A DNA stretch of 64,000 nt from a virus. Positions within the stretch are counted from its first letter, which is position 1; every line of letters begins with the position of its first letter. Below the pieces are notes generated by a model. That model saw nothing but the letters and a program-made list of their open reading frames with translations. It had not been told where the DNA came from and made no database searches. Made by a program: the position numbers and the translations under genes. Positions 27,186-36,019 of the stretch are shown here, in pieces. Where the stretch lies: positions 1 to 64,000 of the IMG/VR virus record IMGVR_UViG_3300050119_000049; one strand, 5' to 3'.

Positions 27186-27665
27186 ATGATCATTTATAAC
27201 GTGCGCGTGTCTGGCGCGCTCTCCGTCGTGACGACTCCGATTGCGACCATCATCTCGGGCGCGACGCGCTCTTTCCTGATTCTGGAAGTGGATTTGGAAG
27301 GCATGGGCACTGCGTCCCAGGCCAACGAAGTCGGCATCTACCGCATCGGCACCGCAGGTGTGACCGGTTCGGGCGCGCTGACCTTCGTGCCGACTGATGT
27401 GCCGAACATGACTGGCACCACTCCTGCCCTGGCATTCAGCGGTACCGGCTTCGCCGGGTATTCGACCCAGCCCATCGCTGGCGCACTCGTGCAGAACATT
27501 CCGATCAACGCGAATGGTCAACGCTACTTCTGGCGTGCGAACGCGAACCTCAACAACGCCATTCCCGTTCAGGGCGGCAACAACGCGCTGGGTTCCGTTG
27601 GTCTGTTTCCGATCAACACCGCAGGCGGCACCGTAACGGGTCGCTTGCAGTTGGCGGAAATCTAG
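27186..27665 (+). CDS. Hypothetical structural protein. First gene of the GC-rich island.
   Basis: ORF. GC content rises sharply at its start. Confidence 0.4.
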   Translation: MIIYNVRVSGALSVVTTPIATIISGATRSFLILEVDLEGMGTASQANEVGIYRIGTAGVTGSGALTFVPTDVPNMTGTTPALAFSGTGFAGYSTQPIAGALVQNIPINANGQRYFWRANANLNNAIPVQGGNNALGSVGLFPINTAGGTVTGRLQLAEI

Positions 27666-27699
27666 TCGGATGGGGGAGGACTGACACTCCCCCGTTTTT

Positions 27700-33544: not shown

Positions 33545-33736
33545 TGTGGGATCAGGACGGCGAGGACAATTCCTGGGTTGACATCGTTGCGGACAGCGCT
33601 CCGGTACGCGCCCCTGCGAGAATTTGGGTGCCGCGCTCCCGCGTTCGTGTTCGCGGTAGATTGATCCATCGGCGCCGCGCGCCGGACCGTCAGTGGTTCG
33701 CGCCGATTCGCGCTAATGCGCCACCGGTGAACTGAG

Positions 33737-36019
33737 ATGTTAGTCCAGGCGATTGGCCGAAATTTAACCGCCGCAGGCACAACGCAAACCACGACAGCGA
33801 TTGCCACGACCTCTGGCAACAACCTGCTGTTCTTTGCGATCTACAACGCCGCCAGCGCAGGGGTGCCGACGCCTTCGGACAGCACGAGTTTGGTTTGGAG
33901 CCCGATTTCCAGTTCGCCTTTTTCGGGTTCGGCGACGGGATTGACGCTGGCCATCTGGCAAGCGCAGAACATCACCGGCAACGCCGTCAACACGTTCACA
34001 TTCGCAACGACCGGCAGCGACACGCCGACGATCTTCGTTGCGGAGTCCTCGGGTCGCGACAAGTTCACGCCGCTCGATTTGGGGGTGACGGCGAGTGATT
34101 CGACCGCGACCAGCGGCGCGCACACGACGGGCGTGATTAATGCGAACGGCGGCGATGACGTTATCGCCTTACTGGCGTCCAGCGTCCTGGCGCAATCGTT
34201 CTCCGCAGCGGGCGGCTGGGCAATCCCGCCGAACGGCACGATTACGTCGGGCACTGGGTACGACGCATTCATCCAGTACCAGAACAACGTCGCCCCCGGT
34301 GCGATCAGCAACGTTTACTCGGTTGTTGTCAGCGACAAGCTCGATGCGTTCATCGTCGCCCTGCGTCAACCGAAATTGGCGATCAGCGACGAGTGGCTGG
34401 ATTACTTCGACGAAGTGCCGGAAGTCTACGCGCTCAGCAACGGTTATTACCAGCTGGCGTTGTCCTCCTTTGCGTATGAGATTGATTTCGACTGGATCGA
34501 CGATTCGGGTGAGAATGATTCTCTCATCTTCACCGAAGATCAGAGCGGCCCGGTCATTGCGAATGCGGCGGTCAACGCCGCCAACCAATACTACGGCGAA
34601 GATGCGGAACTGTTCGACGAAGTCATTGACTTCATTCCGCTGCCCGTCACCTACCAGACCCAGGATCGCATCCCGGTCAGTGCGAACGAAGAGTCCTGGA
34701 GCTGGGCGAACGACGACGCCTACGAGTTCAGCGCGTGGACGCCCGGCAGCTACCAGCAGGCAGATTTGCCGAATCTGGCCGCCCTGCCGTTTTACAGCGA
34801 CACGGATTGGGATGAAGACCCGGACGACTTCTTTGCTGACGACTTCGGCAACGACGATGCCGACCTGCCGCAAAATGACACCTGGGATCACTTCCCGACG
34901 GACGACGACGATTACGTAGTCACCGACGATTTCCTGAACATCAACGCCAACACTGGGCTGTTGTTCCTCAATATCGAAGACGGCTGGGATCAAGAGCACT
35001 TCCAGACCGCCGACAGTGACGAGACCTGGACCGAGGACAATTACGAAAACGACGTAAACCTGCTCCTCAATCAGGAAGATCCGACCTGGTGGGACGAGGA
35101 GCCGGACCAGCTCGACGGCACGACGACCGACCTGGAGCCGGTGGGCTCGAACAACAACCCGGATCTCAGCGTCGAAGATCAGTGGGATCACTTCCCGACG
35201 GACGATGACGATTACCCGATCATTGACGACTACACGCTTGTCGATCTGGTCGCGAATCAGACGCTGACGATTGAAGATGCCTACGATTGGTTCCCTGCGG
35301 ACCCGGACGACGAGACGTACCAGGCCCTGGACACGGACTCGGTTGGCCCGACGCTGATCATTCCGATCTCGATGCCGCCGGAAGATCCTTGGGATCATAC
35401 GCAAGCTGAAGATGATTACGTCACGCCTGACGATTACGCGATTGTCGATGTCCCTCTGAATCTGAGCTTTCCGTCAGCCGATCCTTGGGACTGGACGCAA
35501 GACGATGATGATTATGTAGTCATTGATGATTACGTCTACGTCAACAACAAGCCGATCACGATCGAAGATCCATGGGACTGGACGCAAGATGCTGACGATG
35601 ATTCGATGCTTACGATCGACGCACCGATTGCACCAGCGCAAATGGCTGCGATCGATGATCCTTGGAATCACAGTCAGGAGATCGAAGACGACGAATGGAT
35701 TTATCGAGATTCTACGATCAGCATCATACCGCCGTCGCTTGTCGAGGATCCTTGGGATTGGACGCAAGATGATTCGGATAATGACATCTCATGGGCGCTG
35801 ACCGAATACTCGCTCGTCAACTTGGTAATTCCGTTCTCGCAGTTCACTGACGATTCATGGGATTGGGCATATGAGCCAGCGGAAGATCAAGATATCGACT
35901 GGGCGATCACTGACGGTCCGCTTGTGCCGAATCTGTATATCTACGATTGCAACTATGAAGTATTCATGCCTCATCGGACGTTCACAGTAATTTGGTTGCC
36001 GGATCATTTGGAGAGTTAA
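33737..36019 (+). CDS. Paralog 3: N-terminal beta-sandwich domain fused to long acidic tandem repeats (D/E-D-P-W-D-W-T-Q-D-D-D-D-Y)
   Basis: The N-terminal 200 aa resemble the two preceding ORFs. There are at least 8 repeats such as EDPWDWTQDDDDYVVIDDY, EDQWDHFPTDDDDY and DDSWDWAYE. A GC-rich to GC-average switch falls within the gene. Confidence 0.55.
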   Translation: MLVQAIGRNLTAAGTTQTTTAIATTSGNNLLFFAIYNAASAGVPTPSDSTSLVWSPISSSPFSGSATGLTLAIWQAQNITGNAVNTFTFATTGSDTPTIFVAESSGRDKFTPLDLGVTASDSTATSGAHTTGVINANGGDDVIALLASSVLAQSFSAAGGWAIPPNGTITSGTGYDAFIQYQNNVAPGAISNVYSVVVSDKLDAFIVALRQPKLAISDEWLDYFDEVPEVYALSNGYYQLALSSFAYEIDFDWIDDSGENDSLIFTEDQSGPVIANAAVNAANQYYGEDAELFDEVIDFIPLPVTYQTQDRIPVSANEESWSWANDDAYEFSAWTPGSYQQADLPNLAALPFYSDTDWDEDPDDFFADDFGNDDADLPQNDTWDHFPTDDDDYVVTDDFLNINANTGLLFLNIEDGWDQEHFQTADSDETWTEDNYENDVNLLLNQEDPTWWDEEPDQLDGTTTDLEPVGSNNNPDLSVEDQWDHFPTDDDDYPIIDDYTLVDLVANQTLTIEDAYDWFPADPDDETYQALDTDSVGPTLIIPISMPPEDPWDHTQAEDDYVTPDDYAIVDVPLNLSFPSADPWDWTQDDDDYVVIDDYVYVNNKPITIEDPWDWTQDADDDSMLTIDAPIAPAQMAAIDDPWNHSQEIEDDEWIYRDSTISIIPPSLVEDPWDWTQDDSDNDISWALTEYSLVNLVIPFSQFTDDSWDWAYEPAEDQDIDWAITDGPLVPNLYIYDCNYEVFMPHRTFTVIWLPDHLES

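Follow-up and report, generated by a model that had tools for sequence, protein, structure and literature searches.

A patchwork of GC-rich segments in the head gene module of an uncultured tailed phage

What is a block of unusually GC-rich DNA doing among the head genes of a tailed phage, and did it come from elsewhere? The block occupies positions 27186-35400 of a 64,000-nt stretch (positions 1 to 64,000 of IMG/VR record IMGVR_UViG_3300050119_000049; hereafter the window). It encodes a protein of 1399 amino acids (aa), several small proteins and most of a protein with acidic repeats. The phage is of soil type, has about 51% GC, represents an uncharacterised lineage and is tailed, with myovirus-type tail genes. 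An earlier note had described the block as one host-specificity cassette, acquired horizontally from a high-GC source and carrying a recombination junction inside a gene. Our analysis shows instead at least three patches with high GC at synonymous sites, one intermediate segment, and native-like segments between them. The patches are likely to be imports from GC-richer genomes.

Composition of the block and its junctions

The whole window has 52.1% GC. Positions 27186-35400 have 59.5%, versus 51.0% for the remainder, and every other 8.2-kb stretch stays at or below 52.8%; 60-nt tiles from the island differ from the remaining tiles at Mann-Whitney p = 9e-35. A significant GC step is thus present where the earlier note had placed it, but its size was overstated. 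The figures quoted had been 65-73% for the island and 45-50% for the flanks, a contrast of about 20 points, whereas the flanks measure about 51% and the contrast is about 8.5 points. The tile given as an example, 28081-28140, does have 73% GC, but it is the highest of all island tiles and so atypical; 24% of the tiles within the island reach 65%.

Does the excess reflect the proteins encoded or the choice of codons? Per-gene and sliding codon-position profiles concentrate it at third codon positions (GC3), with no rise at first positions (GC1). As a control, the amino-acid content of each segment was held fixed and codons were drawn from backbone usage, the deviation being expressed as z. Backbone genes have GC3 values mostly of ~0.5-0.6 (range 0.39-0.67) and mostly |z| < 2, the top positive values being those of portal (4.9) and major capsid (4.1). 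For island segments the draw predicts GC3 of 0.51-0.56. The high segments nevertheless stand at z = 4.9-16.2, and since the excess persists at fixed amino-acid content, the island does not dissolve under the very control that the earlier note had named as able to remove it. The segments are as follows.

27186-27665 (+): patch A, high GC3; one complete gene, for a 159-aa protein, with boundaries at both gene ends; GC3 0.74-0.75 (0.55 expected; z = 4.9)
27700-28040 (+): N-terminus and first Ig-like domain (Ig1) of the 1399-aa protein, aa 1-113; low GC3, 0.39 (z = -3.3 over 27700-27999)
28041 to ~30400 (+): patch B, high GC3; second Ig-like domain (Ig2) and ~730-aa uncharacterised central module (aa 193-925) of the same protein; GC3 0.83-0.85 (0.83 and z = 16.2 over 28000-30399)
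30401-31899 (+): C-terminal domain of the same protein (aa ~929-1399), predicted to be a right-handed beta-helix; intermediate GC3 from ~30400 on, 0.66 (z = 5.3)
31899-32627 (+): 242-aa gene, of a family of ~230-aa domains; native-like GC3, 0.55 (z = -0.2), this composition extending to ~32700
~32700-35383 (+): patch C, high GC3; made up of the next three entries
32627-33544 (+): 305-aa gene at the start of patch C, GC3 rising at ~32612-32803; GC3 0.81 (z = 8.9)
33544-33738 (+): possible Arg-rich open reading frame (ORF) of 63 aa, read and translated from the sequence
33737-35382 (+): GC3-rich 5' 72% of ORF 33737-36019, which encodes a 760-aa protein; N-domain (aa 1-205) and first ~345 aa of the acidic repeats; GC3 0.76-0.77 over 33737-35401 in two parts, z = 6.3 (N-domain) and 9.5 (repeats)
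35383-36019 (+): 3' end of that ORF, of native composition; GC3 0.51, equal to expectation over 35402-36019

The deviation goes beyond the level of GC3. In the high patches G and C at third positions both go up and A falls to 6%. Their relative synonymous codon usage (RSCU, as logarithms) correlates at 0.82-0.87 with that of three relatives of 61-66% GC (L001, L009 and L011; loci used for comparison carry L numbers), versus 0.57 with the phage's own backbone. The dinucleotide delta* to the backbone is 88.6, against 43 +/- 11 (maximum 68.5) for backbone pieces of equal size. The tetranucleotide check suggested in the earlier note points the same way, with a usage correlation of 0.67 against a null of 0.91 +/- 0.02 (minimum 0.87). 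Some of this deviation in oligonucleotide signature may be due to coding content.

Likelihood segmentation of the GC3 series places four change-points, at 28041 (support 28020-28110), ~30200-30430, ~32612-32803 and 35383 (support 35359-35389); the log-likelihood ratio is 40 at 28041 and 64.6 at 35383. Gene-level data add steps at ~27150-27186 and 27665-27700. The resulting patches are sub-genic in size (0.5-2.7 kb) with intragenic junctions, and the patchwork of high, intermediate and native-like segments argues for several events or donors rather than a single cassette. Junction 28041, which is the sharpest besides 35383 and had been missed, falls at the Ig1/Ig2 boundary of the 1399-aa protein, and the ~30300 boundary is close to the junction between its central module and beta-helix.

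Within ORF 33737-36019 total GC declines in two steps, near 34350 and then at 35383, and these differ in kind. The first is an effect of second codon positions (GC2, ~0.58 to ~0.32), GC3 there staying at 0.7-0.88, and it arises because the Thr/Ala/Gly-rich N-domain changes to Asp/Glu/Trp-rich repeats. The second is a true synonymous break inside the acidic repeats: repeats of the same type have GC3 of 0.77 to its left and 0.51 to its right, and the Asp codons GAC:GAT number 39:24 on the left and 12:30 on the right (p = 0.001). An 'EDPWD' repeat unit begins at this very point. The in-gene junction that had been proposed for this ORF, between N-terminal domain and repeats, does exist, but lies about 1 kb further 3' than inferred, and the C-terminal repeats are not GC-average as had been said, their first two thirds being GC3-rich.

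Identity to a relative switches at the same place. The window and L002 share 67 of 84 residues (80%) to the left of 35383 but 96 of 209 (46%) to the right (Fisher p = 1.3e-7), whereas all other pairs have 40-61% identity on either side. This switch is independent evidence of phylogenetic incongruence, and of recombination. The test covers junction 35383 alone, the other junctions having no suitable relatives.

Imported patches or a local bias?

We consider it likely that the patches were brought in by recombination, in several events, from GC-richer donors, whether the DNA was that of phage relatives or of hosts. Replacement or insertion would have been recent for at least three stretches (27186-27665, 28041 to ~30400 and ~32700-35383), recent being measured against the time that synonymous sites need to drift to resident composition, and the incoming DNA would be from genomes of ~60-66% GC. 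The segment at ~30400-31899 may derive from a donor whose own GC3 was near 0.7, or may be an older import that has partly drifted. Exchange would have been modular, with junctions at gene ends, at the Ig1/Ig2 boundary, between central module and beta-helix, and at the edge of a repeat unit. At such places divergent partners with short stretches of homology at the protein level could recombine and stay in frame. That transfer went into this phage, how many events there were and how recombination took place are what we infer.

The earlier proposal of horizontal acquisition from a high-GC source, with in-gene junctions, therefore gains support from the GC3 control, the codon usage, the oligonucleotide signature and the switch in identity to L002, but not in its single-cassette form. 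Homologue contexts agree with it as well. The nearest homologues of the central module and the beta-helix sit in phage or bacterial contigs of 60-63% GC, and the beta-helix segment agrees in GC3 (0.66) with its nearest relative (~0.70), in the myovirus contig L115. The family of phages sharing the head genes spans 27-68% GC (68% in L013).

Several results weigh against import. No donor was found: the best protein matches are 30-50% identical, save for the 80% over 84 aa in L002, and GC3 in that stretch of L002 is just 0.66-0.69. No DNA match came from megablast of 26000-37000 and 36000-52000 against a collection of 50,697 phage records, and no relative above 85% DNA identity occurs in the collections searched. 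The oligonucleotide signature of the patches singles out no sampled relative. The sequence is a single metagenomic contig, with no second copy in the collections searched. Finally, acidic-repeat genes of relatives also have GC3 above that of the adjacent protease gene (L001, +0.14; L002, +0.09; L008, +0.085; L016, no excess). This excess could reflect either a net inflow of genes from lineages rich in GC or a locus-specific bias. The genes in question are:

L001, 165-2615 (61% GC contig; GC3 of the gene 0.85)
L002, 2-904
L008, 3082-5442
L016, 914-3193

The last observation speaks for a process biased towards GC that acts locally, at a recombination hot spot: frequent exchange at this variable locus, with biased repair or gene conversion, would raise GC3 in place, and no GC-rich donor would be involved. 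The window shares the acidic-repeat excess with L001, L002 and L008, and the locus is clearly variable among relatives. L016, however, shows no excess, and such a process fits poorly with steps that are abrupt (support 30-90 nt) and lie at domain or repeat boundaries, one of them coinciding with the switch in the closest relative. Nor does it readily explain why one gene should have GC3 of 0.77 and 0.51 in the same type of repeat on the two sides of 35383, or why the entire codon-usage pattern, and not just GC3, should match GC-rich relatives. We regard it as improbable.

Could the mosaic have been made during assembly? A chimera of co-occurring related phages of different GC, formed by template switching at conserved stretches, is suggested by the fact that the sequence is known from one contig alone, that relatives of very different GC share single samples, and that one junction sits in a repeat array. 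It would take at least six switches in 8 kb, though, each needing a shared exact k-mer despite GC3 of 0.85 versus 0.5. Moreover, reading frames are open across all junctions, the junctions coincide with domain boundaries, and the 1399-aa ORF is colinear with a separate homologue for each of its modules. Such a chimera is likewise improbable.

Codon selection, whether through high expression of island genes or through messenger RNA structure favouring G- or C-ending codons, might be read into the mild GC3 excess of the major capsid and portal genes. The patches (0.77-0.85) lie far above the major capsid (0.65), GC3 changes abruptly within single genes and hence single transcripts at 28041 and 35383, and the gene at 31899-32627, between patches, is native-like, leaving this explanation a very remote chance. 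As for an artefact of Gly/Ala/Thr-rich proteins that raise GC with codon choice unaltered, the GC2 of several island genes (0.51-0.58) is above that of most backbone genes and the total-GC drop near 34350 is indeed GC2-driven, but with GC1 not raised and GC3 at 0.74-0.83 against the 0.51-0.56 expected it is refuted for GC3 and has practically no chance of being the answer.

Proteins encoded in the block

Pfam and PHROG searches with the island proteins gave no matches other than one sub-threshold E1_FCCH hit in the 1399-aa protein, described below. The Ig-like and beta-helix assignments of the earlier note nonetheless gain support. Ig2 (aa 109-191) resembles the bacterial Ig-like domain He_PIG (PF05345; E = 1.8e-4, 22.3 bits, below the gathering cut-off of 24), Ig1 and Ig2 are 39% identical (E = 3e-16), and more than 100 PF05345-bearing proteins align with the Ig region at 32-43% identity. 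Such proteins dominate a full-length search but span just the N-terminal 12% of the query.

The C-terminal domain is, on the evidence of its AlphaFold model (predicted template modelling score, pTM, 0.74; residues 1-290 mostly at 80-95 in predicted local distance difference test, pLDDT), a right-handed parallel beta-helix of polysaccharide lyase/hydrolase type. Foldseek matches it to rhamnogalacturonan and pectate lyases, AlgE4, the HK620 tailspike and K1 capsule lyase, the Protein Data Bank (PDB) entries including 5olq (E = 2.4e-5), 1ru4 and 2pyg. The relative P0143 carries PF13229. In L115 (60% GC) the gene next after Baseplate_J encodes a protein of 1156 aa, and the C-terminus of that protein is 50% identical to the domain.

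The central module is end-to-end colinear, at ~30% identity, with stand-alone proteins of 690-740 aa, a family present in 248 bacterial species. In a Steroidobacteraceae metagenome-assembled genome (L006, 61% GC) the homologue is in a polysaccharide locus, adjoining a Wzx-type flippase and a methyltransferase; in L005, a phage-like contig of 63% GC, it stands at the end of a run of tail-like genes. The module has no Pfam relative, and its profile found no match among PDB sequences at E <= 1. Its AlphaFold model was poor (pLDDT 48), and the Foldseek matches of that model were discarded as meaningless. Two conserved motifs, E-x-S-N-E-V-W-N and Y-E-x-G, are what we take to be reminiscent of clan GH-A glycosidases, this motif resemblance being the whole basis of a putative glycosidase assignment. 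The E1_FCCH beta-barrel was matched, below threshold, by residues 685-746 (29752-29937; E = 5e-5, with 23.8 bits versus a cut-off of 29.5). As the bacterial homologue P0124 has nothing that corresponds to aa ~670-721, a small E1_FCCH-like domain appears to have been inserted. An exact 24-nt direct repeat (29149-29172 and 29398-29421, + strand, 249 nt apart) encodes YNYAKFAG twice within the module. Neither the central/beta-helix region nor the 305-aa protein turned up relatives in scans of viral contigs, and a concatenated query of small island proteins gave matches to the beta-helix part only.

Three of the proteins had been proposed to be paralogues with a putative beta-sandwich fold. Five bridging proteins, significant to both, support homology of the 242-aa protein, whose family counts 77 representatives, with the N-domain of the 760-aa protein, and there is a weak profile match as well. 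No such link is supported for the 305-aa protein, which has no significant similarity to the 242-aa protein beyond a C-terminal LESSEYF and an FSG motif, and no bridging sequence. LESSEYF ends both proteins (32604-32627 and 33521-33544, + strand) and is absent from every other locus fetched; its codons differ synonymously four times (GAA/GAG, TCG/TCC, AGC/AGT, TAT/TAC), so that the motif is conserved at the protein level. The 159-aa protein has no Pfam or PHROG match, and the pairing of 27186-27665 with 26321-26797 as paralogues was rejected. The gap of 192 nt that separates the 305-aa gene from the 760-aa gene is filled by the 63-codon ORF, which begins MWDQDGEDNSW; the stop of the gene upstream overlaps its ATG, and the ATG of the gene downstream adjoins its TGA.

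The 760-aa protein shares its acidic repeats with a second gene of the window:

24965-26002 (+): second acidic Asp/Trp-repeat protein, 345 aa; GC3 0.46-0.49, z = -1.5

Repeat families D1-D3, D6 and D7 are common to this gene and to 35268-35887, and the units to the right of 35383 resemble those of this native-composition protein. The repeats (24965-26002 and 34352-36019, + strand) are long and Asp/Trp-rich, with motifs including EDPWDW, DDDDYVV.DDY and QYYGEDAELFDE; neither protein belongs to a Pfam or PHROG family, and the 345-aa one ends in a hydrophobic, membrane-like stretch. Homologues of the product of 33737-35382 occur in L001, L008 and L016 at 48-51% identity. Acidic-repeat homologues are found upstream of the protease in these three and in L002, L013 and L014.

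A small conserved protein of ~105-155 aa (window 36021-36353, + strand; L009 5667-5981; L003 1749-2219) always follows a large variable one. The large partner is the acidic-repeat protein in the window, L001, L002, L008 and L016, a 523-aa protein in L003 and an 832-aa protein in L009, where the pair is upstream of the terminase and not of the protease. Such an arrangement suggests that the two genes move as a unit or that they encode a chaperone/adaptor pair.

Long alternative-frame or antisense ORFs of 233-466 aa are confined to the GC3-rich patches (34169-35404, - strand; 29319-30719, + strand; 30826-31527, - strand), and one of them, antisense and 411 aa long, begins no more than ~20 nt from the 35383 break. 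Stop codons are scarce in GC-rich coding DNA, which accounts for such ORFs; most likely they are by-products and not genes.

Setting within the head module

The head and tail genes around the block are listed here; all assignments except that of the accessory block are PHROG matches.

17061-18653: terminase
19014-22529 (+): portal
22574-23455: MuF-like head-morphogenesis protein
23456-36349 (+): accessory block of 12.9 kb, between the MuF-like gene and the prohead protease
36350-37837: DUF2213 prohead protease
38396-39508: major capsid; GC3 0.65
42395-43933: tail sheath
45024-46538: tape measure
47586-50850: baseplate
51498-52385 (+): short tail-fibre-like gene, 295 aa

About 19 relatives (L009-L012 and L018-L032; 59-66% GC), recovered through their protease or MuF genes, have portal, MuF, protease, decoration and capsid genes contiguous, with a MuF-protease spacing of at most ~1.1 kb (below 0.7 kb in all except L011). 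This contiguity marks 23456-36349 as an accessory block inside the head module; the more distant relatives lack it entirely. Closer relatives (L001, L002, L008, L016, L013 and L014) have only the acidic-repeat gene and the 36021-36353 gene in common with it upstream of the protease. The GC-rich patches fill the right two thirds of the block, and the left third is of native composition. Promoter and terminator scans of 23000-38500 stayed at chance level.

The gene for the 1399-aa protein is thus outside the tail/baseplate module, whereas the homologous domain of L115 adjoins Baseplate_J. Over positions 8787-16722 of that contig, the region compared, the large beta-helix protein lies between Baseplate_J and a wedge-like gene. 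In the window Baseplate_J (49651-50850, + strand) is directly followed by the wedge-like gene (50850-51488) and then by the 295-aa tail-fibre-like gene, so that the protein in the head block is the sole large fibre- or spike-like protein of the phage. We presume that the island proteins have the host-range role that the earlier note gave them, in which case the imports would alter the surface polysaccharide or the host that the phage recognises.

Does the block behave as a unit? It may be an exchangeable fibre/depolymerase cassette resident in the head module, with the acidic repeats and tandem Ig domains on its borders as recombination handles by which phages of 44-68% GC that share an environment swap specificity modules, and its proteins perhaps decorate the capsid and not the tail; we think this doubtful. 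If true, the recurrent GC3 excess of acidic-repeat genes would record a net flow of modules from GC-rich to GC-poorer phages, or GC-biased exchange. It is of note that L001 (61%), L003 (44%) and L016 (56% GC) all come from IMG/VR sample 3300050821, and family members of very different composition therefore co-occur.

How does this compare with known systems? The classic examples of modular exchange are the tail-fibre mosaics of P2, Mu and P1. Receptor-binding proteins of Klebsiella phages undergo modular horizontal exchange in which an N-terminal anchor is conserved and the distal specificity or depolymerase module is swapped (PMC8262889), and E. coli tailspikes follow the same pattern (PMC10408124). 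Like these, the window has a large multi-domain protein whose distal domains are nearest to unrelated phages or bacteria, a junction (28041) at a domain boundary just past the N-terminal part, and a putative C-terminal beta-helix of polysaccharide lyase/hydrolase type. Unlike them, its block is in the head-morphogenesis module (MuF-protease) and not after the baseplate genes, and has small-gene and acidic-repeat partners with no counterpart in the systems described. The exchange is, moreover, visible here as unameliorated GC3 steps, which can be seen because the gene pool spans 27-68% GC.

A second parallel is with phage depolymerase domains that are related to enzymes of bacterial polysaccharide loci, among them the tail-spike SGNH domains of Pectobacterium phages, which have host homologues (PMC7693777); the central module of 730 aa is likewise homologous end to end with stand-alone bacterial proteins, but at ~30% identity and with no Pfam or PDB relative and no reliable model. 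The block also recalls bacterial genomes, where islands of atypical GC and GC3 are said, following a concept of Lawrence and Ochman, to mark recent transfer and to ameliorate later. Foreign codon usage and oligonucleotide signature in a resident background are common to both, and ~30400-31899 would fit either partial amelioration or a mid-GC donor; the differences are the sub-genic scale (0.5-2.7 kb) and the setting in a phage genome instead of a bacterial chromosome.

The type of event is therefore already known as ordinary phage mosaicism, mosaic fibre or depolymerase genes and compositional islands both being familiar, and no new mechanism is involved; the phage that carries it is a new example. 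What it offers is a clean, quantifiable case in which an uncultured lineage of phages exchanges modules smaller than a gene, and in which a gene pool of wide GC range lets junctions be placed to 30-90 nt with no donor in hand. The sites that tolerate splicing (between tandem Ig-like domains, between central module and beta-helix, and at repeat-unit boundaries) are useful in engineering receptor-binding proteins.

Two features elsewhere in the window may be recorded. With 1171 aa the portal protein (19014-22529, + strand) is of unusual length. Its match to the portal family covers residues 7-471, and a further match, over residues 987-1144, is to a PHROG whose annotation is ADP-ribosyltransferase exoenzyme toxin (E = 5e-11), which suggests a putative portal-toxin fusion. 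A single tRNA-Gln (anticodon TTG) is encoded at 60319-60391 on the - strand, amid early and replication genes.

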